A stretch of 64,000 nt of DNA from a virus, in the UHGV virus genome UHGV-0057547; one strand, given 5' to 3'. Below the pieces are notes generated by a model. That model saw only the letters and a list, made by a program, of their open reading frames with translations. It was not told where the DNA came from and ran no database searches. Position 1 is the first letter of the stretch; each line of letters starts with the position of its first letter. Shown piece by piece: positions 8,186 through 64,000 of this stretch. The translations under genes and the position numbers were made by a program.

Positions 8186-8197
8186 TATATCATCCCC

Positions 8198-8848
8198 TTA
8201 TAAATTAGTAGTTTTGTATCTAATTAATTTCATTGCCATGTCGTCAAGTTGTTGAAATGATTCTCTTAATGTTTTAGAAAAATATTGTTCTTTACCTAAT
8301 TCCTTTTCTCCTAATTGAACAGTGCTACCACTAAAATCAGTTTCTTCAAGTTCTTCATTTTCATTTAAACAGTTTACCATTTTATTATATGAAACATCAG
8401 TCATAATTAATACTTCTTTATATTGTATTTCAAATACTAATTTCCATTTTCTTTTATCCTCAGTTCCATTTTTATTAATTTTAAGTTTTAGGTAATCACT
8501 TACTTTATCTCTTATTGGTAATATTTCTATTAAACTTCTTTCAACAGATTTTTGTATATTATTGTATGTTCTATATATATTACTATCATTTTCCATATTC
8601 CTTATTAACCATTTTTCATGAGCTTTAACATGACATACGCCAAACATTATATTAAGTGAATGGTATAGCCATTTATTTTCTTTTTTACTTTGGTTTATTA
8701 TTATTCTTATTTTTGTTTTAAAACTATTTTCTTTTGCTATTCTTCTTGTGCCTTGATTACCATGTTGTTTATATTCTTCATAACTATCTAATTTTCTATA
8801 ATCTTTTCTTTCTTTTAAATTTACATTAGTTTCTAATTCTTTTTTCAC
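8198..8848 (-). CDS. hypothetical protein
   Basis: ORF track, 216 aa. Confidence 0.45.
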   Translation of the reverse strand: MKKELETNVNLKERKDYRKLDSYEEYKQHGNQGTRRIAKENSFKTKIRIIINQSKKENKWLYHSLNIMFGVCHVKAHEKWLIRNMENDSNIYRTYNNIQKSVERSLIEILPIRDKVSDYLKLKINKNGTEDKRKWKLVFEIQYKEVLIMTDVSYNKMVNCLNENEELEETDFSGSTVQLGEKELGKEQYFSKTLRESFQQLDDMAMKLIRYKTTNL

Positions 8849-8878
8849 AATATCTTCTCCCCTTTTTATAATTTATTT

Positions 8879-9250
8879 TTATTTTTTACTTTTACCTTTT
8901 CCTTTTAATTCGGATTCTTTTTCTTTTTCAGCTTTTTTTGATTTCTTAAGTTCTTCAAAATAAGTTGGTAATATTTGTTTCATTTTTTTTCTAAATTCTT
9001 TTGCAAAATATTCTTTAATTTCTTTAACTTCTTTTTCTACCTCTTTAGGAATTTCATCACTTACATCAATTTCATTTAATATACTTAAATGCAATTTTCC
9101 AAAGTCATTATTATATCTTGCACTTTCGGCTCTAGTTTCGCTAAATCTAACTAGATATTTGTTTGTGTATTCCTCATTGAAACAATATTTATATGCATCA
9201 ACTTGTCTGTCAACAAAGTTATCTAATTTTTCTTTATCACTTTTTTTCAT
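8879..9250 (-). CDS. hypothetical lysine-rich protein
   Basis: ORF track; start ATG 9250 after GGAGAGATGATT; E2 element in its leader. Confidence 0.45.
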   Translation of the reverse strand: MKKSDKEKLDNFVDRQVDAYKYCFNEEYTNKYLVRFSETRAESARYNNDFGKLHLSILNEIDVSDEIPKEVEKEVKEIKEYFAKEFRKKMKQILPTYFEELKKSKKAEKEKESELKGKGKSKK

Positions 9251-9339: not shown

Positions 9340-9454
9340 GTTTCAATGCTTACATTTAAGCTTCCCTATTCAACATATCCTCTTTCACCTAATGGCTACT
9401 TGAGTTTGTGTGATACTCCCAGGGCGTAAATTCGGGTTTGAACATCCCTACATA
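9340..9454 (-). ncRNA. E element copy 2
   Basis: Identical to copy 1; sits between promoter 9476-9530 and gene 8879..9250. Confidence 0.5.
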
Positions 9455-9672: not shown

Positions 9673-9788
9673 AGTTTCAGTGCTTTGACAAGCTTCCCTG
9701 TTCATCGTGTTCTTTTTCACTTTATATAAGCTACTCAAGTTTTTATAACACTCCAAGGGCGTAAATTCGGAACTGAACTTTCCTACAT
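9673..9788 (-). ncRNA. E element copy 3, directly 3' of tnpB (candidate right-end / omega-RNA scaffold)
   Basis: Begins ~45 nt after the tnpB stop, following a hairpin ACCGAATA..TATTCGGT, in the same orientation as tnpB. Its terminal ACAAGCACTGAAAC is duplicated 37 nt further on. Confidence 0.5.
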
Positions 9789-11390: not shown

Positions 11391-11514
11391 AATTCCCCAA
11401 CTCCTTTTTATTTTTTTATTTTATTTACTTATATTGTACTATTACTTTTATTAAATGTCAAGTATTTTTGAAAAAAACTGAGAAGAAATTTTTCTTCTCT
11501 AAATTAAGTATTTA

Positions 11515-11799
11515 TTAAAATGTCTTAATTAAGAATACTATCATTATTACTACTCCTATGCCCCCTAAAATTGCTCCCATTTTACTAAATTTAATTTGTT
11601 CTTCCATTGCCATTATTAATCTTTCTTTGTCCTCTTGTACTGTAAATCCATCTTTTCTCATTTCCTCTATAAGCGTATCTATATTGGCTGAGTATTCATT
11701 GTAATATGCTCTATCTCTAATGTAATTTAGAATAGGTAAAAAAGCTAAACAAATACCAAATACTTCTAATGCTCTACTTATTAATAATGATAAATTCAT
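11515..11799 (-). CDS. small membrane protein (two TM segments)
   Basis: ORF track; hydrophobic N- and C-terminal segments. Confidence 0.45.
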   Translation of the reverse strand: MNLSLLISRALEVFGICLAFLPILNYIRDRAYYNEYSANIDTLIEEMRKDGFTVQEDKERLIMAMEEQIKFSKMGAILGGIGVVIMIVFLIKTF

Positions 11800-11940
11800 A
11801 AAATACCTCCAATTTAAAGTCCTTAAGACTATTTATTTTTTTTATTTTGTTTTTTTATATTTATTATACTATTATTATATCATGTAGTTTATGTTATGTC
11901 AAGCATTTTTGAAAAAACTGAGAAGAAAATTTTTCTTCTC

Positions 11941-12537
11941 TTATAAACTTAGATTTAATAAATTAACTTGTTCTATTATTTCTTTATTATCAGATAAAAA
12001 AACTTTTTTTCTTCTATCGTACAATACTACATGACTACCACATTTCTTGCAACTAGCACCTTTGAAGGCTTGCTTTTTGCTTTCTGTCAATTTACTAACA
12101 GTTCCTATTATTCCATCTTTTGGACAGATTACAAAATATTTATCATTTCTTTCTTCATATTTCAATTTTACTTTCAGACTATCAGATATTTCTAAATACT
12201 TACAAACTTCTTTCCATCTATCATCATGATTACAATTATCATCGTGTAATTCATTAGCTATATAATGTGCTAATTCATGTTTTAATACGTATTCAAGTTT
12301 TTCATTTGTTGCATTTCTAAAAAATGATTTAGATATTTGCATGTCACAAGGGACTATTTTTTTAGAGTTTCTTGTAAGATAAAATCTATAACAAGCAACT
12401 TTCTTTTTAAATCTTCCATTAAGATTTATATCTTTTTCAAATAATGGTATTTCATTTCCTGTTTTCTTATTAAACATTTCTATGTTTTCATTTAAAAATA
12501 CTCTTACTTCATTAACATTTTTTATTCTTCTTTCCAT
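11941..12537 (-). CDS. SprT-like zinc metalloprotease with C-terminal zinc ribbon
   Basis: HELAHYIANELH HExxH motif plus CKKCGSHVVL. Confidence 0.55.
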   Translation of the reverse strand: MERRIKNVNEVRVFLNENIEMFNKKTGNEIPLFEKDINLNGRFKKKVACYRFYLTRNSKKIVPCDMQISKSFFRNATNEKLEYVLKHELAHYIANELHDDNCNHDDRWKEVCKYLEISDSLKVKLKYEERNDKYFVICPKDGIIGTVSKLTESKKQAFKGASCKKCGSHVVLYDRRKKVFLSDNKEIIEQVNLLNLSL

Positions 12538-12650
12538 TCTTCATTCCCCCTAAAATATTTTTATTATTTATTTCTTTTATACTTATATTATATACTAGAT
12601 TTTATCTATTGTCAAGTATTTTTGTAAAAACTGAGAAGAAAAAATCTTCT

Positions 12651-13238
12651 CTATTCAACTTCAACTTCTATTTTTTTAAAAAAATCTATCATTTCTTTTT
12701 CGTATTTATTGAAAAGTCTGACTGCTTTTTTATCTGCTATTTTTTCACATTCGATATTCCTATAGTGTTCCATTTGCATCTCACCAATTAACCAAGTATT
12801 TATTTCATATTCCTTTTCACATTCAAAATATAATTTATTATATCCATGTTTATCAAGCGACCTATTTAGTGTTATCATATGCCCTATTTCATGTAATATA
12901 GAAACCATGCAATAAACTTGAAAAAAATTCATTTCATATTTTTTCATTATGTAATTGTAATTAAAACCATAATGCTTTAAATAATCCACAAAATATTCAT
13001 GCTGTCTAATTATACTTTCTCTTTCGGTATAAACATTTTCAGGAACATATAACAAACTATATCTATCAACTTTTTCTTGTCCTCCACATGCAAAAGATTT
13101 TTTTGAATATTTTTGTATGCAATAAGGTATTCCTTTTTTCAATTCTTTTTTCTCTATAAAAAAATCAAATATTGAATTCATAAAATCTTCTGTGATGTCA
13201 ATATATTTTCTTTTTATTAAATCACTTTTAAGTTTCAT
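12651..13238 (-). CDS. HExxH metallopeptidase-like protein
   Basis: ILHEIGHMITL motif. Confidence 0.45.
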   Translation of the reverse strand: MKLKSDLIKRKYIDITEDFMNSIFDFFIEKKELKKGIPYCIQKYSKKSFACGGQEKVDRYSLLYVPENVYTERESIIRQHEYFVDYLKHYGFNYNYIMKKYEMNFFQVYCMVSILHEIGHMITLNRSLDKHGYNKLYFECEKEYEINTWLIGEMQMEHYRNIECEKIADKKAVRLFNKYEKEMIDFFKKIEVEVE

Positions 13239-13384
13239 TTTTTATTTCCCCCTTTATACTATATATTATATATTAAGTTTTATATATTGTCAATCACTTT
13301 TGAAAAAAACTGAGAAGAAAAAATTCTTCTCTTTTAAAAAAAATTTTCTTTAATAAAATCTTTTATTTCAATTAGAATTACTCC

Positions 13385-13498
13385 GTTTCAATACTTGTTA
13401 TCAAGCTTCCCTATTCAACGTATCCTCTTCCCCTCTTATGAGGTACTCAAGTTTATATGATACTCCAAGGGCGTAAATTCGGAACTGAACTTTCCTAT
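13385..13498 (-). ncRNA. E element copy 4 (stand-alone unit: promoter, element, terminator)
   Basis: Preceded by promoter 13500-13560 and followed by a GAGAAGAATTTTTTCTTCTC terminator before the next promoter. Confidence 0.5.
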
Positions 13499-13657
13499 TT
13501 ATTTCTTATTTACTTATATTATACTATTTTTACTGTTGAATGTCAAGTATTATTTTTAAAAACTGGGAAGAAAAATTTTCTTCCCTTGATTGTTTTCGCA
13601 CAAAAGTAGGCTACGTCAGCACAAAAGTGGGCGACCCTATATTTTATTCCAATTTAA

Positions 13658-14236
13658 TTATTCCAATTTTTTAATCATATAGTGCGTAATTTTTCTTTTT
13701 CCTTTTTTCTTTCTTTTTAAATCATATCCATGCTCTTTTAATATTTTTTCTAAAGTGGGTAAACCTATTAATCTATTTCTGTTATCCCTAAGGTTATTTT
13801 TAATAATTATATCATTAAAAATAATATCTCTAGTAATCCATTTATTAAGTAGATTATCTTCAATGGAAAGGTCAATTTTTATATGTTTATGTTTTCTATG
13901 AATAACACTAAGATGACAATGTATACATAATGTTTTATAAGTATAAAACAAGTGTTTTCCTAATACTTTTTCTTCTATGTTTTTCAACTCTAATTTTGTA
14001 TAATTATCTATTGTTTTATATTCTTCTAGTCCTAACTCAATTAAAGTATCTTTTACCATATTAGCAAATGGATAAATGTGATGAACTTGTAAATCTTCAA
14101 TTCCACCGCATTGTTCACATTTATTCTTTTTAACTAACTTTACAAACTTATACCAAACTTTTATCCTTATATAATTGTTTAATGTTTGTTTTCTTTTTTC
14201 ATTATTTAACATTCCTTTTTTAATTATAATATTCAC
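13658..14236 (-). CDS. HNH endonuclease
   Basis: CEQCGG..LQVHHIYPF..CIHCH HNH/zinc motif. Confidence 0.6.
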   Translation of the reverse strand: MNIIIKKGMLNNEKRKQTLNNYIRIKVWYKFVKLVKKNKCEQCGGIEDLQVHHIYPFANMVKDTLIELGLEEYKTIDNYTKLELKNIEEKVLGKHLFYTYKTLCIHCHLSVIHRKHKHIKIDLSIEDNLLNKWITRDIIFNDIIIKNNLRDNRNRLIGLPTLEKILKEHGYDLKRKKKGKRKITHYMIKKLE

Positions 14237-14239
14237 CTT

Positions 14240-15307
14240 TTATTTTTTATTATAAATATACATTTTGTAGAAATTATCCCAAATTTGATAGTATTCTTCA
14301 GAATATTGAAGTTGTCTTAATCTACTTTCTTTCATAAGTATAGCATATTCAACATTAAATCCATTTCTAGATTTTATTTTTTCATCAATAGTTTTTTTAT
14401 TTTTATTTTGTCTTTTTAGTGCCAAAGATTTTCTAATTTCATATATATCATTTTTAATTATATCCACATCAAAACCATTTAAATAGTTCTTCTTAATATA
14501 TTCTATATCTTTAGTTAGAAAAATTTGAAATGCTTCATAAGTATATTTATATCCTAATTCACAAGTCAATTCAAAACTTAATTCTTTATCAAAGTCTTTT
14601 AATTTTTGAATATTACATTTTATATTTTCCTTTCTGTTGCCATATACTAAATCATTTCTACTTGTAATACTATATTTCTCACATATTCTATTTTCAATAT
14701 CTATTACTTTTCTTAATTGTATAGAATTTGTATTAAGATACACTTCATTATTTTCTAAGTCTACTGCAATTTTCACTTTATACCATTTTATTAAATTATC
14801 TTTTTTTTCAAGTTTATTTAAAGCAGATAAAAAATTTGAATATAAGGCAGAATTTTCAACAGAGAAAAAATCTTTTTTAACTATATCTTTATCGTTTAAA
14901 ATAGGATATTGATAATTAATATTCTTTTTTTCATTTGGATAAAATATTTCTACTAGAGCCATACTAGTTAGCCAATTGTCAAATGTTTTTACACAATATG
15001 TTTCATCTTTAAAATTGCAATAACCTATAATAGAATTTAATAAAGCTTGTTTCATTAAAAAACTCATACTCTTTTCATCCTCCTTAATATCATATACTTT
15101 CCTTTTGGAACTATCAAATTCTATCCCATTGCTCCCCATAAGAGTATAATATACTCTACTTCCTATTTTATTTTTTTCCACTGCACATACTTTGGAAAGT
15201 TTATTGATTAAAGTTTTTTCTTTTTTTCTAAAATTACTATAACTGTAGTCACAAAGTTCACAAAGTTCTTTTGATGTATAAGTCCCATCTTGTAATATTA
15301 CTTCCAT
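14240..15307 (-). CDS. hypothetical protein
   Basis: ORF track, 355 aa; start after GGAGTTGATGAT. Confidence 0.5.
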   Translation of the reverse strand: MEVILQDGTYTSKELCELCDYSYSNFRKKEKTLINKLSKVCAVEKNKIGSRVYYTLMGSNGIEFDSSKRKVYDIKEDEKSMSFLMKQALLNSIIGYCNFKDETYCVKTFDNWLTSMALVEIFYPNEKKNINYQYPILNDKDIVKKDFFSVENSALYSNFLSALNKLEKKDNLIKWYKVKIAVDLENNEVYLNTNSIQLRKVIDIENRICEKYSITSRNDLVYGNRKENIKCNIQKLKDFDKELSFELTCELGYKYTYEAFQIFLTKDIEYIKKNYLNGFDVDIIKNDIYEIRKSLALKRQNKNKKTIDEKIKSRNGFNVEYAILMKESRLRQLQYSEEYYQIWDNFYKMYIYNKK

Positions 15308-15489
15308 ATCATCAACTCCTTTTGTCCCCCAAACAGTTCTCTATATATATTATATTATATATTATATTATAGAACTGTTTGGGGGACATTATTTTTATAT
15401 ATTTATATATATTATACTATAAATTTTATTAAAAGTCAATAATAAAAATAAAAAAAAGAAAGGCTATTTAAACCTTTCTTTTATATGAA

Positions 15490-16065
15490 TTAAACATTAA
15501 ACATTAAATCACCTAAGCATAAAAGAAAATCTTTTTCTAATTCCCAGTTATCCCATATTAAAACATCATATTCATTTTTTGTATGTCCTTCATATCCTTT
15601 TTCACAATATAACCAAGTTATTAATTCACCATCGGCTTCTCTGTAAGTTGCTCTATGTGCCACTACTGTTTCTAAATAATTTGTATCATGTAAAAAATCT
15701 TCATTTTTTAAATCTTCTTCTGTTAATTTGTCTTTTGCTATTTTTAAAACAAATATATCATTACAGTTTTCTATATCTTCATCTTTATAACCTAAAGTCA
15801 CTGTTGCTTCATAATTATCATCCAATTCTTCTATATCTACATTAATCTTATCTATATCTTTAGCAGAATCTAAATATAATTTTTTATTATCATTTAATTC
15901 ATTATATTGTGGCTGATATTCTTCAATGTTTCTTTCGATTTCATTTATTATATTTTCTTTTAACAATTTTTCACCTTGTTCTATTTGGTTATTAGAACAT
16001 CCTATCATAGATATGGCCATTAGACCTCCTAAAATCAATCCTAAGCCCTTTCTAAATACTTTCAT
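15490..16065 (-). CDS. lipoprotein
   Basis: Signal peptide with lipobox MISMIGC. Confidence 0.55.
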   Translation of the reverse strand: MKVFRKGLGLILGGLMAISMIGCSNNQIEQGEKLLKENIINEIERNIEEYQPQYNELNDNKKLYLDSAKDIDKINVDIEELDDNYEATVTLGYKDEDIENCNDIFVLKIAKDKLTEEDLKNEDFLHDTNYLETVVAHRATYREADGELITWLYCEKGYEGHTKNEYDVLIWDNWELEKDFLLCLGDLMFNV

Positions 16066-16158
16066 GAATAATTCCTCCTTTAACCTTTAAAATTCATTTA
16101 AATCAATTATATCCCATTATAGGACAGAATATACAACTGAGGATATTAAATATCCTCT

Positions 16159-16314
16159 TTATTTGTTTTTATCAGGTAGACAAACTATAACTAATAGTGC
16201 GAAAAATCCAAAGAAAAATCCTAATAATAACCAAGCTACAGTACTTCTACCTTTTTCAGTAGCAATAAGACAACATCCAATTGCAAATAAAATACTCCAA
16301 ATTAATATAGCCAT
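16159..16314 (-). CDS. small membrane protein (51 aa)
   Basis: Unlisted ORF MAILIWSILFAIGCCLIATEKGRSTVAWLLLGFFFGFFALLVIVCLPDKNK, RBS AAAAGGAG. Confidence 0.4.
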   Translation of the reverse strand: MAILIWSILFAIGCCLIATEKGRSTVAWLLLGFFFGFFALLVIVCLPDKNK

Positions 16315-16380
16315 AATTTCAACTCCTTTTTAAATTTTATATTTTGTTATCAACTGAGGATATTAAATATCCTCTTTAAT

Positions 16381-16971
16381 TTAATATGTTATTAAATCCA
16401 ATTCTTCCATTTCGTTTAATAAGTCATAATCGCATACATCTTTATAATAGCCATTTTCATATTTAAATAAATTTATCTCATCGCTTAAAGCATTTACTTC
16501 TACATAATATATTTCATCATTTAATTCAACTTCTACTGATTTAGAACATTCTAAGAATAATTCTAAAAATTCTTCTTCATAATTAAATTTCAAATACATC
16601 CATTCAGAATATCCAACTCTTACATCTCCACGTCCACAATGAACTCTAAATCCAACTATATATTCATCTTCTTTAGTATCATAATAAGTTCTAAAATCAA
16701 TATGATTAATTAATGGTGCATTCCAGTTATAAGTATTATCGGCAGTTATTTCTTCTATCCAACCTTCATCAAGTCCTATTTCTAAATAATCATCAATATA
16801 ATATTCATAATCAGTTTCTTCTTCTTTATCCCATATAATACCATTAATAACTTCATAAGGTTCTAAAACATTTAATATATCCATTATATCAACTGTCAAT
16901 TCATTTTCTTTTATATTATAAGTTCCTTCTAAGCATTTTTTTACATCTTCTATTTTTGTTCTTCCAAACAT
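16381..16971 (-). CDS. hypothetical acidic protein
   Basis: ORF track; start ATG 16971 after GGAGGTTTAT. Confidence 0.5.
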   Translation of the reverse strand: MFGRTKIEDVKKCLEGTYNIKENELTVDIMDILNVLEPYEVINGIIWDKEEETDYEYYIDDYLEIGLDEGWIEEITADNTYNWNAPLINHIDFRTYYDTKEDEYIVGFRVHCGRGDVRVGYSEWMYLKFNYEEEFLELFLECSKSVEVELNDEIYYVEVNALSDEINLFKYENGYYKDVCDYDLLNEMEELDLITY

Positions 16972-17220
16972 ATAAACCTCCAAGTTTAAAGTCCTAAAGA
17001 CTATTTATTTTTTTATTTATACTTATATTATATAGTATAATTTATATCATGTCAACTATTTTTAAAAAAATATTTTAAATTTTTTATTTTGTTTTTATTG
17101 ATTGTTAATAACTGAGAACATTAAATATCCTCTTTATACTATATATTATATATTAGTTTATATGATATGTCAATATAATATTAAAAAAATATAGAGAAAA
17201 AATCTCTATATTTTTTATAT

Positions 17221-18051
17221 CTATGCCAATTGTTGTAAATCAGTTTTATTTATTTCTATTTTTAAAATTTTACTTAATGCCATTATGCCTTTAGGAGTGA
17301 TTTTAAGATTACTATAATTATGACCTTCTTTCTCTCCAACTATTACCTTAAACCACGTTTTATCAACTTCAGAATACGGTAACCAACTTTTGCCTTGCTT
17401 GAATATAATTCTATTTTCATTTAATGTTTTATTAAATTGTTGTGCTGATTTAAATTTAAATAATTTAGCAACTTGAGTTGATGTATATAATCCATTGCTA
17501 TTCATAAAATCATCAAAATAATTTACTTTAGGTTTATCTTTTTCTATTTTTTCTAATAATGGTTTCTTTTCTAGTTTTGCTAATTCTTTTGATGCTACTA
17601 TTCCCTCTTGTCCACCATTATAGATATCTAGTAATAATTTTGCTTTTAATTGTTCATCAGAATTTATTACTTCTCTCATTGCAAAATATTCTCTTCTTAA
17701 TTGTTTTCTTATTTCTTTTGCTTTTTCAGTTTTCATGAATCCAACCAATAACATATAACCTTGTTCAGATAATAAATAGCAATTTTTTTGTCTATTATTA
17801 GTTATAAATCCTAAAACCTTAGCAAGGTTTAAGGATTTTTCATCAGACATCAAATCCAATAAATCAATTCCTATTTCAAATTCATCTATATGTTCATTTA
17901 TTAATGTATTAACTTTATCCAATCTAGTATCATGTATTTCAGATATTGTTTTAGCTAAGATAGCTTTTTGACCTTCACCAAATCCACTTTCTACAACAGG
18001 TATTTCTTTACCCATAAAATCTTGTGTGCCATTAACTTTCAATTCATTCAT
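17221..18051 (-). CDS. phage antirepressor-like regulatory protein
   Basis: N-terminal NGTQDFMGKEIPVVESGFGEG motif shared with 21650..22747 (paralogs); resembles ORF6N/KilA-N-type phage regulators. Confidence 0.4.
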   Translation of the reverse strand: MNELKVNGTQDFMGKEIPVVESGFGEGQKAILAKTISEIHDTRLDKVNTLINEHIDEFEIGIDLLDLMSDEKSLNLAKVLGFITNNRQKNCYLLSEQGYMLLVGFMKTEKAKEIRKQLRREYFAMREVINSDEQLKAKLLLDIYNGGQEGIVASKELAKLEKKPLLEKIEKDKPKVNYFDDFMNSNGLYTSTQVAKLFKFKSAQQFNKTLNENRIIFKQGKSWLPYSEVDKTWFKVIVGEKEGHNYSNLKITPKGIMALSKILKIEINKTDLQQLA

Positions 18052-18167
18052 ATTACCAGCTCCTTTTATTCTTATTTGATTATATTATACTTATGCCTTT
18101 ATTAAAAGTCAATAAAAACCTAAAAATAAATTTTAGGTTTCATAACTGAGGATTAATTAAAACCCTC

Positions 18168-18602
18168 TTATTTTACTTTATGTCCATTTATGCTATAAGT
18201 ATGAGTTTTGCCTTTATTGTCAATTCCTTTCACTGTCACCTTATAAGTTCTATATTCTTTTAAATCTTTTTCCATATTTGTTCCATGTAATTTGTTAGCT
18301 ACTTGTTTTACTATCTTCTTAGTTTTAGAACTGTTTAAGTTGCTTCTAAATTTAACTACATATTCTTTACTATTCATTTTTAAACTATAACTTGTTATTC
18401 TTAAATATTTTAATACTTCTTTATTTTCTCTTTTTTCTATGCTGTCAAGTGTTATGTAAGTTCTTCCTTTTGCTCCTTGAATTACTTTAGCATTAATTAT
18501 TACTGTATTTCCTAAAACCATTAAACCTATTAAACCTACCATAGTAATTTTTTTTATTAAATTTTTCATAATATCAAATCTCCTTTTTATTTTTTTATTC
18601 AC
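18168..18602 (-). CDS. secreted protein
   Basis: N-terminal signal-peptide-like hydrophobic segment. Confidence 0.45.
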   Translation of the reverse strand: MNKKIKRRFDIMKNLIKKITMVGLIGLMVLGNTVIINAKVIQGAKGRTYITLDSIEKRENKEVLKYLRITSYSLKMNSKEYVVKFRSNLNSSKTKKIVKQVANKLHGTNMEKDLKEYRTYKVTVKGIDNKGKTHTYSINGHKVK

Positions 18603-18623
18603 CTTTTGGGTGATAACTGAGGA

Positions 18624-18839
18624 TTATAAAATCCTCTTAAAATAAAAATTGAAGTTCATTCTATTAATGTCATCATGTATCATGTCATCGTGGACTTTTA
18701 CCCACTCATCGGATACACTGCTTAACAAATCCTCTATGCCTTCATTGAAATAGCTTAAATAAAAATTGTCAAATTTAATTGCGTTCATATCCAACTCTCT
18801 ATCCTCTGAAAACATATTATTTTTTGCTTCTACTGTCAA
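18624..18839 (-). CDS. hypothetical protein
   Basis: ORF track, 71 aa; E5 in its leader. Confidence 0.4.
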   Translation of the reverse strand: MTVEAKNNMFSEDRELDMNAIKFDNFYLSYFNEGIEDLLSSVSDEWVKVHDDMIHDDINRMNFNFYFKRIL

Positions 18840-18842
18840 TAG

Positions 18843-18954
18843 GTTTCAGTGCTCATTAGTAAGCTTCCCTGTTCAACGTGTTCTCTTTCGTTTTAAACTA
18901 CTCAAGTTTTTTACAACACTCCAAGGGCGTAAATTCGGAACTGAACTTTCCTAT
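18843..18954 (-). ncRNA. E element copy 5
   Basis: Starts immediately after promoter TTGACATTATATATAAGCTAGTATATAAT (18958-18995). Confidence 0.5.
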
Positions 18955-19045
18955 TTATATTATATACTAGCTTATATATAATGTCAACTGAAAACTTAAA
19001 AATAAATTTTAAATTTTCTCACTGAGGATATTATTAAATATCCTC

Positions 19046-19303
19046 TTAATACCATTTTCCGTATCTACTTTCATATTCATCTAGTGTTATTATACTAAAA
19101 TCAATCTCTGAATCTACCTCTGATATTTCAACTATATAAGGTTTTCTATTGATAAAAACTTTTGTATCTGAAACATATTTTATATTGTCTAAAACCTTTT
19201 TTAAATTTTGTTTATTAAGTTTATCTAGCATATTATCATATATACCTAATGTATACCCTTCACTTTTTATTTTATTTATTATTATTTCCTTATTTGTTTT
19301 CAT
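19046..19303 (-). CDS. hypothetical protein
   Basis: ORF track, 85 aa. Confidence 0.45.
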   Translation of the reverse strand: MKTNKEIIINKIKSEGYTLGIYDNMLDKLNKQNLKKVLDNIKYVSDTKVFINRKPYIVEISEVDSEIDFSIITLDEYESRYGKWY

Positions 19304-19416
19304 TTTTAAAATCCTCCTAATTCATTTTTATACTATAATTGTATCATAGTATTTATCTATTGTCAAGTAAAAACTTAAAAATAATTTTTATTTTTCTTAA
19401 CTTTCATAACTGAGGA

Positions 19417-19842
19417 TTAATTAAAATCCTCCAAAGATATTAGTATTTGTTTAAATACATTATCATTGCTTAAATCTTTTATTATATTTTTTAAATCATT
19501 ATTTTTATTACTGTCTCTTATTATTAATTCTATGTCTTCTTCTATGTAATCTATGCTGTCATAGACATATTCTTCATAGTCACATCCCATATAGCTTACT
19601 AGTTCTCCATTATCATTATAATGAAATAAATCTTCATTAGAATTAAAATTACCATTTTCAATTTTATCTGCTATTTCTAGTGGCTCTAAACCTTCCATTA
19701 ATTCGTTGAATTCTTCCATATCATGAACTATTAACCAATCTAAATAAAAACTATTATAACTTATAACTTCAACAAGTTCTAATAAATCAGTGTAATTACT
19801 TCTATCCTCTAAATTTTTTCTTAAAGATTCAAATTTATTCAT
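19417..19842 (-). CDS. hypothetical acidic protein
   Basis: ORF track, 141 aa. Confidence 0.45.
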   Translation of the reverse strand: MNKFESLRKNLEDRSNYTDLLELVEVISYNSFYLDWLIVHDMEEFNELMEGLEPLEIADKIENGNFNSNEDLFHYNDNGELVSYMGCDYEEYVYDSIDYIEEDIELIIRDSNKNNDLKNIIKDLSNDNVFKQILISLEDFN

Positions 19843-19979
19843 AATAACAACTCCCTTATTTATTTTTTTTATTTATCTTTATACTATGTATTATATACTA
19901 GTAATTATATATTGTCAAGTGAAAATCTAAATTTTATTTTTAAATTTTCATAACTGAGAATACAGAATTGTATTCTCTT

Positions 19980-20309
19980 TTAGATATTTAAGAATTCATT
20001 ATCTTCTAACATTGTTACTTTATAATCATAATATTTTTTTATAATGTTGATATCGTTTTTATCATATGCTATTATATAAATATTACCTTCTACTTCAGCA
20101 ACTTCTCCAATAATAAAATTATTAAATCGTTCCAATGTTAAATCTTCCAATACAGAATCATCTTCTTCAAATAATTTTTCTTTTTCTTTTTCATCTTTTG
20201 CTAATAAATCAACTAAACATTCAAAATGTAAACTATTTTCTATAAGTTTTCCATCAGCTATAACAAAAGCATTTTTTCTATATAATTCATAATCATATTC
20301 TATTTTCAT
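19980..20309 (-). CDS. hypothetical protein
   Basis: ORF track, 109 aa. Confidence 0.45.
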   Translation of the reverse strand: MKIEYDYELYRKNAFVIADGKLIENSLHFECLVDLLAKDEKEKEKLFEEDDSVLEDLTLERFNNFIIGEVAEVEGNIYIIAYDKNDINIIKKYYDYKVTMLEDNEFLNI

Positions 20310-23142: not shown

Positions 23143-23256
23143 GTTTCAATGCTTGTAACAAGCTTCCCTATTCAACGTGTTCTTTTTCACTTTATAAGCT
23201 ACTCAAGTTTTTGTAACACTCCCAGGGCGTAAATTCGGAACTGAACTTTCCTACAT
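23143..23256 (-). ncRNA. E element copy 6
   Basis: Downstream of promoter TTGACTTTTAATAATAATAGCAGTATAAT; followed by two tiny ORFs and a terminator. Confidence 0.5.
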
Positions 23257-57734: not shown

Positions 57735-59840
57735 ATGAAAGAAATGAACACTATGTATTTAAGAAGAAGAAATAAAATGATAGTTAGCTTTAATGACAAA
57801 GATAGCGAAAAAGTTAGTGAACAAATAATAGCAACTTCATTAGTAAATTTAGAAAGTTATGGATATACATTTTCAGAAAAACTTATAGAAGAATTAAAAT
57901 TATTATCTGTTGAACAATATATAGATTTTTATAATATGACAGTATCAATAATTAAAGAATTAGTAGGAGCAGATAAAGTTACCGAACCTATGTATCCTAA
58001 TTTCCCACAACAAGTAATGGAAATGGATGAAGTTGAATTATATCTTAATGCAATAATTCATTATGCTACTGATGGTCAATTAGTTCCTGAATATGAAAAG
58101 AAAGAAAGATTCCCTTTAATAGGAAATTATGACTTAACTGTTATAGACTTAGGAAATGTTGAAGATTTCAATACAATATTTACTAATTTAGTATCTTCTA
58201 AAGTAAGTATATCTGCTTCAGATAAATCAGATATATCATGGTTTTTAAAAAAATTCAATAAAGAATATCTAAAGAAAATTATGCCTGAAGAAATTCCATT
58301 TAAAGAAATATTGAGTTATGTGACTTCTGAATTATGGTTTGGTGAATACAATGATGACATTAAAGAAATATTGATACCTTATTATAAAACAGCCACTGAT
58401 GTCTTAAGATTAGCAACAGTTTTAAGTGATGGAGATGAAAGTTTATCAAAAGATTATTATTATAATTCATTTAAAAGAAAAGACAGAAGAATACTATTAA
58501 CAATGTTAGAAAATGCAAATAACATAGAAGAGGATATGCTTAGATATAAAAATAGATGGATAAGATTAGGAGAGGTATTACACCCAGGTGAATATAAGAA
58601 ATTTAAAAAAGTTAATAGAGCATTTGATAAAATAAGAAATGATAAAAAAATAGATACATTTAATAGTAATATAGAAAAAGCATTTGAAGAAAAAGACTTA
58701 GATAAAATTCTTGAATTATTAACTAGTAGACCTGGTGAATTCGCTAGAAGATTAGATAGAACTCTTAGATTAGCAACTGATAAAAATGAAAGCAATAAAA
58801 TAGTATTAGCATTTAGTCAAATAGCTGAAAAAATTCCTACTCCTCTTTTACTACAAATTAGAAGTTATTTCATAAAAAGAAAAGAAAACAACAACTTAAG
58901 AGTTTTCTCAATAAAAGGTTCAGGAAAATTATATGGTAAAGAAAATGATTTAAAAGAACTAGATAAAATAACTTGTACTAGAATAGAAAACATTTGTAAT
59001 CTTAGATTAATGAATGAATATTCTAAAAGAGATTATTTAGGGAAAGTTTATATAGACGAAGAATTAAAAGATTATATAGCACCAACATCTCAAAGAAACT
59101 CTAGTAAAGCATTAAAATCAATGGCAAAAGGTAGTAAAATGAAAATAAAAGATGGAACAAATTTTTTAAGAAATTTCGTATATTGGAAACAAAAAAATGG
59201 TTGTAGAACAGATTTAGACTTGAATGCATTATGTTTTACTAATGAGTTAGAAGTTATTGATGAAATATGGTATGGTAATTTAAGAGGTCGTAAAACAAAT
59301 ATTTGTCATAGTGGAGATTTTATATCAGCTAAAGATGGTGCAAGTGAATTTATTGACATTGATATTGAAAAATGTAAAGAAAGTGGCGTTAGATATATCT
59401 TAGTTTCAATTAATAGTTTTTCAGAAGAATATTTCAGTGAATTAGAAGATTGTTTTATAGGTTACATGGAATTAGATAATAATACAACTGGCGAAGTATT
59501 TGAGCCAAAAGCAGTAGCCAATAAATCTGACTTAAGTTCTGATTGTGAACAAGTAATCGCTAACATAATAGATTTAGAGGAAATGTGTATTTATTGGGCT
59601 GATATGCCAGTATCAAAAAGCTATGGATATAATAATATAAAATTTAATAAAAAGAATTTGACATATACCCTAGAATCAATAATGAATATATGCAAACCTA
59701 ATTTATACGATGTAATATTCATGAATGCAATTGCTAGAGGAGAAGTAGTAGATAATAAAGAAGAAGCAGAAATAGTTTATTCAACAGATGGAGATATTAC
59801 ACCATTTGATGTAGATATAATTGTCGGAGAATATATATAA
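57735..59840 (+). CDS. large protein with C-terminal TerD-family domain and ~480-aa unrecognised N-terminal region
   Basis: C-terminus TDLDLNALCF..IWYGNL..CHSGDFISAKDGASEFIDIDIEKC..VRYILVSINSFSEE..TGEVFE..IIDLEEMCIYW follows the TerD pattern (DLDxSAL, FYNNL, HSGDNLTGEG..IDVDLSK, RIAFAVTIH). Confidence 0.6.
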   Translation: MKEMNTMYLRRRNKMIVSFNDKDSEKVSEQIIATSLVNLESYGYTFSEKLIEELKLLSVEQYIDFYNMTVSIIKELVGADKVTEPMYPNFPQQVMEMDEVELYLNAIIHYATDGQLVPEYEKKERFPLIGNYDLTVIDLGNVEDFNTIFTNLVSSKVSISASDKSDISWFLKKFNKEYLKKIMPEEIPFKEILSYVTSELWFGEYNDDIKEILIPYYKTATDVLRLATVLSDGDESLSKDYYYNSFKRKDRRILLTMLENANNIEEDMLRYKNRWIRLGEVLHPGEYKKFKKVNRAFDKIRNDKKIDTFNSNIEKAFEEKDLDKILELLTSRPGEFARRLDRTLRLATDKNESNKIVLAFSQIAEKIPTPLLLQIRSYFIKRKENNNLRVFSIKGSGKLYGKENDLKELDKITCTRIENICNLRLMNEYSKRDYLGKVYIDEELKDYIAPTSQRNSSKALKSMAKGSKMKIKDGTNFLRNFVYWKQKNGCRTDLDLNALCFTNELEVIDEIWYGNLRGRKTNICHSGDFISAKDGASEFIDIDIEKCKESGVRYILVSINSFSEEYFSELEDCFIGYMELDNNTTGEVFEPKAVANKSDLSSDCEQVIANIIDLEEMCIYWADMPVSKSYGYNNIKFNKKNLTYTLESIMNICKPNLYDVIFMNAIARGEVVDNKEEAEIVYSTDGDITPFDVDIIVGEYI

Positions 59841-59881
59841 TAATAATTTATGGTAGAAAAGTAATTTTCTACCTTTTTTTA

Positions 59882-59910
59882 TTTACTTTTAATAAGAATC
59901 TTAGTATAAT
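59882..59910 (+). promoter_or_regulatory. consensus-type promoter
   Basis: TTTACTTTTAATAAGAATCTTAGTATAAT. Confidence 0.5.
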
Positions 59911-59948
59911 ATAAGTAAAAAGGATAATAACAGATATAGAAGGAGAGA

Positions 59949-61208
59949 TTGTATATGTTAGATGAAAAGTTCTTAAGAAAAGAAAATGAAACATTAGAAG
60001 AATATCAACTGAGATTATCTGTGATGAAATTAAAAGATGGAGAAGATATAGAATGGCAAGACATTAAAGAGTTATTAGATAGTGACGAACATAGAGATAC
60101 TCTTAGAAGAAAAGGAAAAGGTCTTGTTATGGCTTATGATATATACGAAGAAAAAATAGCAAAATTAGAAGATGAATATTACTACAAACTTAAGAAAATG
60201 AGAGAAAAAGTTGATGAAGACATAGAAGATAAAAGATTAAGAGAAATCAATAACAAAGTGTTACAGCTTGAAAAAGAAAAAATTAAATTAAAAGACCAAA
60301 GAAATGATTTAAATGCAACAAAAAGAACAATAGCTAGAGTAGAACATTTAGTTGAATGCATGGAAGATAAAATAGAAGAATTAAGTAAAGCTAAACCATT
60401 ACTTGAAAAAGAAGTTATTAAACCAATTAATAATACAATTGGGATAGCAATGATATCAGATATTCACTTAGGAGTTGGAGTTGATAATGAATTATCACAA
60501 TATAATCCTGAGATATGTAAGAAAAAAATGAATCATTATATCAATGAAGTTATTAGATATGGAGAATTTAATAATATAAGTGAATTGTATGTATTAGGCT
60601 TAGGCGATTATGTTACTGGAATTATAAGAAATACAAATAGATTAGAATCAAGATTAAATATAGTTCAACAAGTTTTAGTAGTAAGTGAATTGTTATCTGA
60701 AGCCATTGGAAGACTATCAGAACATTTTATATGTAAAGTTGGTTTAGTTCAAGGTAATCATGATGAGATTAGATTGGGTGATAAGGATAATACATTGATA
60801 GAAGAATCATTTACATTTTTTATAGATGAATATATAAAACAAAGATTAAAAGAAAATAAAAATGTTGAATTCTTACCAACTGAAGATAAAGAAAAAGAAT
60901 ACATAACTTTTAAAATAAATGGATTAAATTTCTTTGCATCTCATGGACAACGAGATAAAGATAGACAACTTGATAGAACTATTGAAATGTTTGATGAAAG
61001 AATAGATGTTGTATTAAGAGGACATTTTCATCAACCGTCAAAACATTATAAGAATAAAACATTGGTAATAACCAATGGTTGCTATTCCGGTGAACCTTAT
61101 TCAAAAAGAGCTAGATTGTATACACCTAGTATTCAAAAATTCTTAATATTTGATGAATATGGATTAGTATGTGATTACGACATCAATATAGATAGATATG
61201 AAAATTAA
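59949..61208 (+). CDS. coiled-coil protein with C-terminal calcineurin-like metallophosphoesterase domain
   Basis: MPP motifs DIHLG, GDYVTG, GNHDE, GHFH in order; N-terminal ~150-aa K/E-rich coiled coil. Confidence 0.7.
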   Translation: MYMLDEKFLRKENETLEEYQLRLSVMKLKDGEDIEWQDIKELLDSDEHRDTLRRKGKGLVMAYDIYEEKIAKLEDEYYYKLKKMREKVDEDIEDKRLREINNKVLQLEKEKIKLKDQRNDLNATKRTIARVEHLVECMEDKIEELSKAKPLLEKEVIKPINNTIGIAMISDIHLGVGVDNELSQYNPEICKKKMNHYINEVIRYGEFNNISELYVLGLGDYVTGIIRNTNRLESRLNIVQQVLVVSELLSEAIGRLSEHFICKVGLVQGNHDEIRLGDKDNTLIEESFTFFIDEYIKQRLKENKNVEFLPTEDKEKEYITFKINGLNFFASHGQRDKDRQLDRTIEMFDERIDVVLRGHFHQPSKHYKNKTLVITNGCYSGEPYSKRARLYTPSIQKFLIFDEYGLVCDYDINIDRYEN

Positions 61209-61452
61209 CACATATAAATTTTATTATACGGTGAGAAATTAATTAAAGATATTAAAAATGTAAAAAGTAGTCTTATAAAAATAGTGTAAGTCAATGTGGA
61301 AGGACGGTTTCACAGCTTACAATTTCCTTCTTTTTTACTATACTATTCTTATAATAATCTATATTTACTTTAATATCTCTCCGATTTGGGTATCATAGTC
61401 CTTTCAACTATGATACCCTTTTTTTATTATATAAAACAGAAAGGAGAAAAAT

Positions 61453-62023
61453 ATGGCAAAAGCAAAAAAAGAAATAAAGAAAATAATATGTACTACATGT
61501 GGAAGAGAATTGCCTGAAAAAGACTTTGGTAAATCTTATTCATTTAGAGATAAGTTAAATGGAAGATTACCGATTTGCAAAGACTGTTGTGCTAGTTTAT
61601 ATGATAAGTTAATGGTAGATTATCAAGATGAAATGAAGGCGTTATATAGATTTTGTATGATATTAGATTTATATTTTTCTAAAGATACAGTTATGGGATT
61701 AATAAGTAAGAATAGAAATTCTGAAAGTAATCTTGGATATCTATATGTATTAAAATATAATTTGGTACAATATAAAAATAAAACATTTCAAGATACAACA
61801 GCATTTGTAAATATATTTGGTATGACAGAAGAAGAGATGGAAGAAGCATTATATTTAAATACTGAAAAAACAAAAGAAGAAATAGAAAGAAAAACTAAGA
61901 AAATAGTTACTCCGGAAGTAATCAAACGTTGGGGCTCGGATTTAGAGCTAGACGATTATATTTTTCTTGAAGATAGATATAACCAAATGCTTCTTGCTTA
62001 TGATGTAATTATGCGTCCTATGT
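61453..62023 (+). CDS. exon 1 of an intron-interrupted gene (zinc-ribbon N-terminus, product unknown)
   Basis: ORF ends in TAA exactly where the intron-like repeat starts; CTATGT at the exon end is complementary (with U-G) to GCATAG 13 nt into the repeat. Confidence 0.45.
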
Positions 62024-62234
62024 AAAGAAATTTGCATAGAAAATCTCCTTAATTGCAGGTAATTCCTAAAGCCTTACACCAAAACGGAAGGTGAAAACCT
62101 AAACGGCAACGGTACGAAAGTAGAAAAAACGTAAGGATGGATATAAGGTTAAATCCTAAGTATCCAAACATATTTATATATGTTAAAATGGATGTTCATG
62201 CAGGTAAGATTCTAAATTAAATTATTTTAAATAC

Positions 62235-62263
62235 TTAACTTTTAATAAGATAAATTGTATAAT
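62235..62263 (+). promoter_or_regulatory. consensus-type promoter inside the intron driving the HNH gene
   Basis: TTAACTTTTAATAAGATAAATTGTATAAT. Confidence 0.45.
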
Positions 62264-62285
62264 ATAAATAAAGAGAGGTGATAAA

Positions 62286-63203
62286 ATGGCAAAAAAGAAA
62301 TCTCATGAGGAGTTTGTTAATGAATTAAATATAAAAAATCCTAATATAAAAGTATTGAATAAATATGTAAATGTGTCTACGAAAATAATGGTTAAATGTA
62401 TAATTTGTGGAAATGAATGGATGGCAATACCTGGTAGTTTATTAAATGGAACTGGGTGTCCAAAATGTGCAAATAAAAATAAATCAAATAAACAAAGAAA
62501 GACAAAAGAACAATTTATAGAAGAGATGAAAATTATTAATCCTAATGTTAAAATAATCGGTGATTATATTAATAATCATACGAAGATAAAATGTGAATGT
62601 TTAATATGTGGGAATATATATTTTATGATACCTAAAAATTTAAGGAAAGGGCAAAATTGTCCTGAATGTGCTATGAAACAAAGAGTATCTAAAAAATCTA
62701 AAATTCATGAACAATTTATAATTGAATTAAATGATATAAATAAAAATATTAAAGTATCAAATAAATATATAAATGCAAAAACAATCATGGAATGTTCTTG
62801 TGATATTTGTGGTCATAAATGGAAATCTAATGCTGATAATTTATTAAGAGGTCATGGGTGTCCAAAGTGTGCAATAGAAAATAGTAGAGGTGAAAATAAC
62901 CATAATTGGAATCCTAATCTTACACAAGAAGATAGAGAAAATAAAAGAAATTATATGGAATATAAAGAATGGAGAAAAAATTGTTATGAACGAGATGATT
63001 ATACTTGTCAAGTTACAGGGAAAAGAGGAGTAGAATTATGCGTACATCATTTATATTCTTATAATAAATATTATTGTTTAAGAACTGCATTAGATAATGG
63101 TATAACAGTATCTAAAGAAATACATGAATTGTTTCATAAAATATATGGACGAGGAGATAACACATTAGAACAATGGGAAGAATTTATTAAAAGTTTAGAA
63201 TAA
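62286..63203 (+). CDS. HNH homing endonuclease with three N-terminal zinc-ribbon repeats
   Basis: Three ~50-aa repeats each with CxxCG..W and GxGCPxCA; C-terminal CQVTG..VHHLYSY..HELFH HNH motif. Confidence 0.65.
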   Translation: MAKKKSHEEFVNELNIKNPNIKVLNKYVNVSTKIMVKCIICGNEWMAIPGSLLNGTGCPKCANKNKSNKQRKTKEQFIEEMKIINPNVKIIGDYINNHTKIKCECLICGNIYFMIPKNLRKGQNCPECAMKQRVSKKSKIHEQFIIELNDINKNIKVSNKYINAKTIMECSCDICGHKWKSNADNLLRGHGCPKCAIENSRGENNHNWNPNLTQEDRENKRNYMEYKEWRKNCYERDDYTCQVTGKRGVELCVHHLYSYNKYYCLRTALDNGITVSKEIHELFHKIYGRGDNTLEQWEEFIKSLE

Positions 63204-63395
63204 TTTAATATGAATCAAAGCTCAACGACTATTCCGTAAGGAAGTAAAACCACAAGCTATTGGTGGAAGAAAAGGGAGATACCTTAACAGATAATGCTGA
63301 AGGTGAAGAAATAGTCTACTCTCATATGAAAGTATGAGCAGTTTTGTATATATACAAAACGGATTAAGTGTAGCGAACTTAATTGAATATAAAGG

Positions 63396-63696
63396 ATAAG
63401 AATCCCTCATCCCTTTGGTCATATCAAGAAATATGTATGAATTATTTACTCCTTAGAAAAGATAGAGGAAATGTTCAACTTCAAAAAAGTATTCAAGAAA
63501 TTAATAGTAAATTACAAGCTGACTGTAAAATGAAATTATCACAAATAGATAATGATGATGATGACAATGCTTGTTTTGGGAAATTTATAGATAGAATAGA
63601 ATTATATGAACCATGTAATAAAAAGTTACCATTTTTTGAAGATATAGATGGAATAAGACAATACTTAAAACGATGGAAACAAAAAGCCACGACTGT
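63396..63696 (+). CDS. putative exon 2 of the intron-interrupted gene
   Basis: Frame of ORF 63383..63700. It ends GACTGT then TAG, exactly where intron-like copy B begins (pairs with GCAGTG in copy B). Boundaries tentative. Confidence 0.35.
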
Positions 63697-64000
63697 ATAG
63701 AAATATGCAGTGGACACAGATTTAATTGCAGGTAATTCCTAAAGCCTTACACCAAAACGGAAGGTGAAAACCTAAACGGCAACGGTACGAAAGTAGAAAA
63801 AACGTAAGGATGGATATAAGGTTAAATCCTAAGTATCCAAACATATTTATATATGTTAAAATGGGTGTTCATGCAGGTAAGATTCTAAGTGATAATTTTA
63901 TATCATATGAATAAACTTCAACGACTAGAATGCAAATTCGTAGGGTGTAAGCGATTGACACTCGAAAAGGTCTGCCCTTAACAGGTAATGCTGAAGGTGA
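63697..64000 (+). mobile_element. putative group I intron copy B (ORF-less; 3' end beyond window)
   Basis: Near-identical to copy A over its first ~190 nt; contains TCAACGACTAGA (R-like) and ends in the window at the segment equal to A 63283-63304. Confidence 0.45.

Follow-up and report, generated by a model that had tools for sequence, protein, structure and literature searches.

Two probable IA2-class group I introns, one with a putative HNH endonuclease gene, in a YonG_N-family gene of an SPbeta/phiCD211-like phage

The virus genome UHGV-0057547 was analysed over a stretch of 64,000 nucleotides, referred to here as the window, and the locus of interest lies at its end, at positions 61,453 to 64,000. 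Three open reading frames (ORFs) are found there on the plus strand, at 61453-62025 (190 amino acids, aa), 62286-63203 (305 aa) and 63383-63700 (105 aa), together with a direct repeat whose copies lie at 62021-62229 and 63694-63902. The original prediction, made from the letters alone, read this arrangement as one gene split by two near-identical group-I-like introns, and the ORFs and in-frame stops that it described, TAA at 62023-25 and TAG at 63698-700, were confirmed. Its central proposal, that group I introns interrupt a single gene, is upheld by colinear homologues, intron-less alleles and a covarying core. The reading developed below, in which two related introns of group I class IA2 (introns A and B) split a gene of the YonG_N family, are spliced at a non-canonical 5' site and, in the case of intron A, house a putative HNH endonuclease gene, is as a whole very probably correct; confidence is higher still that these are group I introns whose boundaries are placed to within 1 nucleotide (nt).

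The window is identical over all 11,715 shared bases to contig L004 (ENA ERZ1310023 NODE_1, 204,438 bp), which reaches 6.9 kb beyond the window end (window position = L004 position + 52,285) and in which, as had been anticipated, the host gene runs on past the window, with a third exon. The junctions were fixed by intron-less alleles (contigs L010 and L011 to L013) and by protein alignment with homologues. Joining three exons of 553, 281 and 177 nt gives an open frame of 336 aa that is colinear with homologues, and the conceptually spliced protein, used as a query, retrieves 12 relatives, 11 of them uninterrupted, each a single continuous protein of 298-346 aa colinear with all three pieces. 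The first junction reads ...AYD-DKNPSS... in all homologues aligned, and the second ...KRW-F(V/T)xPFA... in those long enough to cover it. At the DNA level, L010 is 90-96% identical to the window region and lacks intron A: it reads GCCTATGATGATAAGAATCCC, whereas in the window GCTTATGATG and ATAAGAATCCC are separated by 1390 nt; exactly the intron A stretch is missing from both L010 and L011.

All elements of the gene lie on the plus strand. Exon 1 extends from 61453 to 62005 (or 62004), as supported by the ORF, by the intron-less L010 and L011 and by the 11 uninterrupted homologues. It is followed by intron A (62006-63395, 1390 nt), an IA2-like group I intron with the endonuclease ORF in the loop of helix P6, whose limits are supported by the L010 and L011 alleles, homology and covariation and could alternatively be 62005-63394 because one G is ambiguous. 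Exon 2 (63396-63676, 281 nt; DKNPSS...YLKRW) is colinear with the homologues and in frame after splicing. Intron B, an ORF-less group I intron of 408 nt supported by its junctions and by Rfam on the complete L004 copy, occupies 63677-64000 and ends 84 nt past the window at the G of ...UUAACG (L004 11799), and exon 3 begins with TTTGTTTTGCC at L004 11800, after ...TTAACG. The exon ends given by alleles and protein alignment are ...GCTTATGAT(G) before intron A and ...CGATGG, ending in G63676, before intron B. With boundaries taken from intron-less alleles or homologues, the last intron base is G throughout, both here (A, ...AAAGG; B, ...UAACG) and in the sibling introns E (...UAAGG), F (...AAAUG) and H (...UAACG) of the adjacent large terminase gene. 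The mRNA across the intron A junction would thus read ...GCU UAU GAU GAU AAG AAU..., with ligated junctions predicted as ...UAUGAUG^AUAAGAAU... for intron A and ...CGAUGG^UUUGUUUU... for intron B, and as GCUUAUGAUG^AUAAGAAUCCC and AAACGAUGG^UUUGUUUUGCC in complementary DNA (cDNA).

Gene callers give separate ORFs of 190, 87 and 53-56 aa at this place, and elsewhere TnpB genes of IS605/IS607 are joined to related ribozymes, which would suit a reading of the repeats as intergenic repeats, or as IStron or transposon copies, lying between three separate small genes and never spliced. Such a reading is barely conceivable in view of the homologues, in which one continuous protein spans all three pieces, and of the conserved N-terminal end of exon 2, which has neither a start codon nor a ribosome-binding site. 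Moreover, no transposase is found in or beside introns A and B, the ORF of intron A encoding a putative HNH endonuclease, and the insertions are precise presence/absence polymorphisms.

With regard to the host product, which had previously been described as unknown, the 190-aa product is assigned to the YonG_N family (PF27269) in precomputed annotation, as are all 12 homologues. Its closest relatives in isolated phages belong to phiCD211-like Clostridioides and SPbeta-like phages (24-29% identity). One homologue of the host protein carries the annotation 'putative terminase small subunit', and the gene directly downstream of the YonG_N gene has a match to Terminase_6N (26.7 bits against a cut-off of 22). 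The split gene encodes a 336-aa YonG_N-family protein that is probably the small terminase, and it lies beside the gene of the large terminase. SPbeta prophage families (YonK, YonG_N and YonD_N) are found among the neighbouring genes, the 305-aa protein is likewise encoded on numerous contigs of ~200 kb from metagenomes, and the host phage of the window is an SPbeta/phiCD211-like gut phage of ~204 kb.

The catalytic core of intron A can be followed along both sides of the ORF. The P3 5' strand AUCUCCU (62043-62049) pairs with GGGAGAU (63274-63280), a 6-7-bp duplex; among the relatives, which have nine different versions of these sequences, the best duplex always falls at this position. The P4-P6 domain up to the P6 5' strand (62050-62215, identical in 166 of 167 positions to its intron B counterpart) comprises P4, formed by UGCA.G (62054-59) with C.UGCA (62197-62202), P5 (UCC/GGA), whose extension bears GAAA hairpins, and the P6 5' strand GAUUC (62208-12). 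The 3' half of the core (63212-63395), as placed by folding, alignment and Rfam, resumes with the P6 3' strand GAAUC (63212-16) and contains P7 (GACUA, 63227-31, with UAGUC, 63312-16), P7.1 (63232-43), P7.2 (63250-66), the P3 3' strand (63274-80), P8 (63281-63304), P9 (63321-38), P9.1 (63342-59), P9.2 (63363-83, loop GUAGCGA) and the terminal G63395. In intron B, the corresponding elements include P2 (63692-63711), the P3 5' strand (63717-22, with 63969-74) and the P7 5' strand (63923-27). The P7-like pairing noticed earlier (CAACGACTAT with ATAGTC, 63227-31 and 63312-16), the GNRA hairpins and the three 3' stem-loops of the P9 region were all confirmed.

Comparative evidence for this core comes from relatives. 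BLAST of intron A without its ORF retrieved 118 phage records, including the IStron CbISt4, an IStron in the portal gene of phage Stau2 and the split tail-lysin region of Staphylococcus phage phiIBB-SEP1 (SEP1). RNAalifold on 13 relatives recovered P2, P4, P5, P5b-d, P6 and P7, with compensatory changes in 25 of the 40 pairs, among them a double change of P7 in intron F, from GACUA/UAGUC to GAACA/UGUUC; P8 covaries as well, alongside P4, P5 and P6, as expected of a conserved group I core. Since a sequence-only MAFFT alignment misregistered P3, P7.1, P7.2 and P9, per-sequence folding and a duplex search were used for those helices. Folding placed three hairpins (P7.1, P7.2 and P8) between the P7 strands and three (P9, P9.1 and P9.2) after them in introns A, B, C, H, J, K and N (C to I being the insertions of the large terminase gene described below), as well as in SEP1 and Stau2, and this pattern of P7.1, P7.2 and an extended P9 is that of the IA2 subgroup. 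The P8-J8/7-P7 stretch of intron A (window 63283-63329) also matches unannotated sites in Pseudomonas phage phiKZ, with 87.5% identity over 47 nt, and in a Vibrio phage, with 90% over 41 nt; these sites may be group I introns that lack annotation.

The ORF of intron A (62286-63203, plus strand) lies in the P6 loop, between GAUUC (62208-12) and GAAUC (63212-16), and encodes a putative HNH homing endonuclease of 305 aa. Its description as an HNH protein with three zinc-ribbon repeats, inserted in a peripheral loop, is supported: three CapR-type zinc-ribbon repeats are recognised (Pfam CapR, 4.7e-17, three stretches), along with DUF4379, the C-terminus is HNH-like, and the HNH endonuclease families of PHROG match the N-terminal repeats (phrog_559, 8.9e-45) and residues 195-294 (phrog_119, 4.7e-09), with a motif ..VHHL..N..H..FH seen in residues 241-285. 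A sequence search of the PDB with the endonuclease gave a zinc-ribbon (E=0.045) as its sole match, and no solved relative. The promoter that had been proposed for this gene, TTAACT-17-TATAAT, is present at 62235-62263 and is followed by the ribosome-binding site GAGAGGTG (the two elements together spanning 62235-62282, plus strand). Sites of this type are not enriched in the region (17 found, against 20 +/- 5 in shuffled sequence); the promoter reading is supported because the same cassette, consisting of the -35-like hexamer TTnACn, exactly 17 nt, TATAAT, ~10 nt, GGAGGTG and ATG, is conserved before eight different intron ORFs that represent two intron families and three endonuclease types. 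These cassettes lie 95 nt upstream of 10001, 12703, 14107, 15593, 16811 and 18296 in L004 and upstream of 11673 and 13368 in L006. The endonuclease gene would have a sigma-A-type promoter and a ribosome-binding site of its own for its expression, and its product presumably cuts intron-less alleles, which would lead to homing. Copy B lacks an ORF in this genome, as had been stated; the same spot of intron B holds a 322-aa CapR ORF in the related contigs L006 and L008, and the endonuclease genes are therefore gained and lost independently of the ribozymes.

The 5' splice site is where the present reading departs most from the earlier one. At the start of intron A, the sequence GAUG^U (62002-62006; ^, splice site) can be read as pairing with GCGUC (62013-62017), forming a P1 (62002-62017, plus strand) in which the wobble pair U62006-G62013 lies one base 3' of the splice site, and UUAU (62009-62012) could form a P10 with the first bases of exon 2, AUAA (63396-63399). 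This P1 abuts a hairpin of CUAUGU, a 10-nt loop and GCAUAG (62018-62039, plus strand), which begins 13 nt into intron A (16 nt into intron B), immediately before the P3 5' strand, and which has equivalents between P1 and P3 in sibling intron C and in intron I2 of Twort orf142. Because five of its pairs show compensatory changes across the 13 relatives, the hairpin is taken to be a real helix, P2, that is not formed with the exon. An exon-complementary helix abutting P2 is likewise found in introns E, F, H, J and N and in CbISt4, SEP1 and Stau2. In intron E it reads GAGA^U..GUCUC (boundary from the close intron-less allele L007), in intron F CAAG^U..GCUU(U)G (boundary from restoring a conserved Ala codon with an intron that ends in G), in intron H GGAG^U..GCUCC (boundary from L006 and L007) and in CbISt4 of phage D-1873 GAGG^U..GCCUC, followed by the same P2-type hairpin. 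For intron B (plus strand), the sequence shows a clear P1 of CG-UGG (63671-76) with CCA-CG (63687-91) and a 7-bp P10 between AAACAAA (63677-83) and UUUGUUU of exon 3.

The last exon base is therefore G before introns B, F and H, A before intron E, and G or U (ambiguous) before intron A, instead of the U at position -1 that, with its U-G pair, is a near-universal rule of group I introns (PMC4227781); the U-G pair is placed one base inside the intron and not at the last exon base. A precedent is provided by group B IStrons, which insert after sites ending in GG or AG and have U as their first base, with the U-G pair directly followed by the loop (Tourasse et al. 2014, PMC4227781), and one of which, BcISt1 of the Bacillus cereus group, was shown by reverse transcription PCR to splice after G and not after U (PMC4227781). 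Introns A, E (with A at the exon end), F, H, J and N share this type of P1, with an exon-terminal G, a +1 U in a U-G pair and the loop directly after it. In the mechanism proposed here, the last 3-5 exon bases and the first intron base would pair with a guide 6-10 nt inside each intron to form P1, which would be stacked directly on the P2 hairpin and followed by P3-P9 as a Twort- or IStron-like core with P7.1, P7.2, P9, P9.1 and P9.2. Guanosine-initiated splicing would then cut between G62005 and U62006, and the exons would be ligated after the terminal G63395. That the 5' cleavage takes place one base 5' of the wobble U is the favoured solution, held with moderate confidence.

Several findings weigh against this reading. 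The P1 helices are short (3-5 bp); intron B departs from the family, its A63677 facing G63686 with no +1 U-G wobble, so that the rule is not universal; the boundary of intron A is ambiguous by one G; the covariance model of Rfam responds poorly, and in part differently, to these introns; Pfam HNH_2 scores the 305-aa protein at 16.9 bits, under its cut-off of 21; and splicing, including self-splicing and the exact phosphodiester cleaved, is inferred from sequence. The ambiguous G would allow intron A alone to be canonical, with a cut after U62004 (paired with G62015 in a 3-bp P1, GAU/GUC) and G63394 as terminal base, and with the shifted site used in its siblings only. This is an unlikely arrangement, for which speak the general rule of U at -1 and the fact that cuts after U62004 and after G62005 yield the same mRNA and are both compatible with the intron-less allele. 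A P1 of 3 bp would be very short, however, and the addition of G62005-C62014 and U62006-G62013 gives a 5-bp helix as in E, F, H and CbISt4, where the boundaries are unambiguous; splicing after G is, moreover, what was shown for BcISt1. The two sites would differ in the 5' end of excised intron A, which would be G+UAAUUAUG... for the shifted and G+GUAAUU... for the canonical site. As a further variant, canonical cleavage 3' of the wobble U, which would make the following G the terminal base, was considered and rejected: it is feasible for sibling H alone (changing Gly to Val) and impossible for A, E and F, which have no terminal G for it.

As for Rfam, scans of the window at gathering and E-value thresholds gave no Intron_gpI (RF00028) match at all, which is explained by the truncation of intron B at the window end and by the 1-kb ORF that splits intron A. 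The condition that the original prediction had named as refuting, a failure of covariance models to place the core, thus arose inside the window for technical reasons only; on the extended contig, P3-P9 were placed in the complete intron B of L004 at 45.7 bits (E=3.7e-9), still under the gathering score of 50. The 3' half of intron A alone reached 25 bits (E=0.006), and sibling intron C, at 92.8 bits, is above the gathering score. Since neither the annotated split region of SEP1 nor the annotated CbISt4 intron is matched by Intron_gpI, the model appears to be insensitive to this lineage and the negative window scan uninformative.

Where the model does align, it takes the hairpin CTATGT/GCATAG, and not the proposed P1, as its own P1. 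This accounts for how convincing the hairpin looked in the original prediction, which regarded CTATGT, and its counterpart in copy B, as the last six exon nucleotides, paired with a guide 13 nt inside the repeat. The hairpins do exist (CTATGT, 62018-23, with GCATAG, 62034-39; ACTGT, 63692-96, with GCAGT, 63707-11), with loops of 10 nt closed by U-G, and they occupy the position of P2, so that their assignment as P1 and guide is wrong. If they were P1, splicing would follow U62023 and U63696 and the mRNA would keep 18-20 extra bases at each junction. The geometry is that of a textbook P1, with a stem of 5-6 bp and U-G beside the 10-nt loop, the differences between the A and B stems are compensatory, and for intron A the joining of U62023 to A63396 is in frame. 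This use of the hairpin, which predicts cDNA that retains GTAATTATGCGTCCTATGT and GUAAUUAUGCGUCCUAUGU, is nevertheless very improbable. The extra bases are missing from L010 and from all 11 homologues, none of which has the 6-aa insertion (VIMRPM, with D changed to Y) that a 5' site at U62023 entails; the extensions of 17-20 nt are not consistently multiples of three; a site at U63696 breaks the frame, with no nearby terminal G to restore it, and by sequence arithmetic the same holds for intron H; and a separate exon-complementary helix is present just upstream of the hairpin in every family member. What had been taken for exon ends is thus intron sequence, the boundaries lying 18-19 nt (62004/5) and 20 nt (63676) further upstream, and G63395, proposed as the last intron base, turns out to be right to within one base in spite of having been derived from the wrong 5' site.

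Two other roles for the hairpin were tried and rejected. Pairing of the exon with the GCAUAG guide is at best partial (UUAUG/CAUAG), does not end at the junction and is absent in H. A left-end hairpin of the IS200/IS605 type, which would lie 18-20 nt inside the element and would recall the IStron relatives, is a historical possibility only, as there is no transposase and the hairpin covaries as an RNA helix. In its likeness to P1, the P2 hairpin might be a vestigial or an alternative P1, for example a cyclisation site.

The relationship between the two introns is mosaic. The repeat of ~190 nt that drew attention to the locus is real, its copies of 192 and 194 nt being 93% identical rather than the more than 95% stated, and near-identity is confined to the P4-P6 module. 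Within it, 62049-62215 and 63722-63888 agree in 166 of 167 positions (the block mentioned above), whereas the 44 nt before this block differ strongly between A and B, and the 3' halves, as compared on the extended contig, are ~67% identical except for a near-identical stretch of 40 nt over P8-J8/7-P7. The block runs from J3/4 to the P6 5' strand and thus corresponds to the P4-P6 domain; it starts right after the P3 5' strand, which must fit each intron's own diverged 3' half, and stops at the insertion point of the ORF. Other parts of intron B are 92% identical to intron H. These patterns suggest a domain-sized recombination between intron copies.

Among known systems, the group B IStrons (BcISt1, and CbISt4 of the C. 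botulinum phages c-st and D-1873) share with the present intron family the IA2-type core with P7.1, P7.2 and P9-P9.2, the +1 U that makes the U-G pair, preceded by an exon whose last base is mostly G, and the P1 directly followed by a hairpin with a 10-nt U-G-closed loop. CbISt4, which is annotated as 'Group I catalytic intron' and has a transposase after it, shares 74% identity with intron A across 122 nt. Introns A and B differ from the IStrons in several respects: they have neither an IS607/IS605 transposase or TnpB nor an omega-RNA at the 3' end; the P6 loop holds a putative homing endonuclease gene or no ORF; the 3' ends in this family are AGG, ACG or AUG and not CGG; insertion sites are not limited to GG; and intron B has A and not U at +1.

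The introns of orf142 in Staphylococcus phage Twort (IA2; L016 16993-17234) are comparable in that several related group I introns occupy one phage gene. They have P7.1, P7.2, a GAAA-capped P9, a P9.x hairpin with a loop of the AGUAACGA/GUAGCGA type and the R/S elements CAACGACUA and AUAGUC, and their direct BLAST similarity is weak. Twort I2, whose ribozyme has been crystallised (PDB 1Y0Q), differs in its canonical P1 (GCAU^ with GUGC, U at -1) and its GNRA-capped P2, and lacks the large P5 extension of A and B. Introns of the td/I-TevI type in phage T4 interrupt an essential phage gene and carry a homing endonuclease gene in a peripheral loop, with its own promoter inside the intron. Intron A resembles them in this arrangement of endonuclease gene and promoter; the T4 introns differ from A and B in encoding a GIY-YIG and not an HNH/CapR enzyme, in their canonical U-G 5' site and in being present as one intron per gene. 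Finally, the tail-lysin split of SEP1, annotated as a joined coding sequence, is 89% identical to intron A over 53 nt of P7-P7.2. Together with the Stau2 portal-gene IStron it aligns with the family across P2-P9, the P1 helices being read from the sequence as AGG^U..GCCU and CGG^U..GCCG; both differ in their long P1 loops of 21-50 nt, and Stau2 has an IS605 OrfB gene 3' of the core.

Further introns are found immediately downstream. The large terminase gene (Terminase_6N; L004 11966-20918, window-equivalent 64251 onward) contains seven more insertions, C to I, of which five carry endonuclease ORFs. In L004 coordinates, these are intron C (12117-12462, no ORF), intron D (12579-13747, 261-aa HNH), intron E (13850-15199, 311 aa, CapR-type), intron F (15330-16714, 318 aa, CapR-type), intron G (~16745-17966, with a 289-aa LAGLIDADG ORF at 16811-17671), intron H (18040-19579, 374 aa, CapR-type) and intron I (about 19715-20054, no ORF); the CapR-type proteins of 311, 318 and 374 aa have a PD-(D/E)XK-like C-terminus. 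Exons of the large terminase gene are as short as ~100 nt, and several junctions fall in conserved ATPase motifs, e.g. ICARG^LSKS. Introns D, G and I belong to another family, the second here, with a common ATCAATCAAAATCGGT, a shared 3' part that is 85-90% identical, and canonical splice sites (U at -1, terminal G); Rfam Intron_gpI gave no match to these three at E<=1. Contig L009 agrees fully with L004 as far as the final base of intron A and then continues (L009 11111 onward) with another, metallophosphoesterase-like gene, which contains the family member intron K (~11513-11883), a further copy, M, lying at L009 ~17690; the divergence reflects either an assembly jump between intron copies or recombination through the intron.

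At least nine introns of two families and at least six endonuclease genes thus lie within two adjacent packaging genes, two introns in the small-terminase candidate and seven insertions in the large terminase gene. This load is unusually high for a bacterial virus, and a literature search for multi-intron phage terminases found nothing directly comparable. Because these packaging genes are broken up into many small ORFs by gene callers, and most of the introns escape Rfam, mis-annotation of the terminase genes of such phages in metagenomes is to be expected. That phage genes can contain group I introns is well established, and the non-U 5' splice site was presented in 2014 as a peculiarity of IStrons of the IS607 type. 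The occurrence of the same P1 architecture in endonuclease-bearing and ORF-less introns at different exon sites offers a set of natural substrates (G^U, A^U and G^A) in which cleavage-site choice can be compared, and suggests that phage homing introns and IStrons are linked. One possible form of this link, for and against which the case seems evenly balanced, is that the family of introns A and B represents the ribozyme lineage of group B IStrons without the transposon, carrying homing endonuclease genes or no ORF and keeping the non-canonical 5' site, with cleavage after G or A, one base 5' of the wobble U. In that case, the odd 5' site would be a property of the ribozyme lineage and not an adaptation to the GG target of IS607, and ribozymes would have been exchanged between phage homing introns and IStrons.

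Upstream of the split gene, the window encodes (57735-61208) a 701-aa TerD-domain protein and a 419-aa calcineurin-like metallophosphatase of the Mre11/SbcD type, and this gene pair is kept directly before the packaging genes in all related contigs. In L007 and L008, a free-standing gene for a 238-aa NUMOD4/HNH_3 endonuclease (8196-8912) lies between the metallophosphatase and YonG-like genes; the counterpart of this site in the window, the intergenic region 61209-61452, has only a terminator-like hairpin (61388-61418). Elsewhere in the window, six RAGATH-18 RNAs (RF03064) were found on the minus strand, at 5317-5379, 9362-9424, 9694-9759, 13407-13471, 18865-18927 and 23164-23227, with scores of 57-68 bits (gathering score, 44.9); each of them is intergenic and upstream of an ORF on the minus strand. 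A copy of RAGATH-18 is also present in C. botulinum phage D-1873, immediately after the TnpB gene of the IStron (L014 4309-4378).

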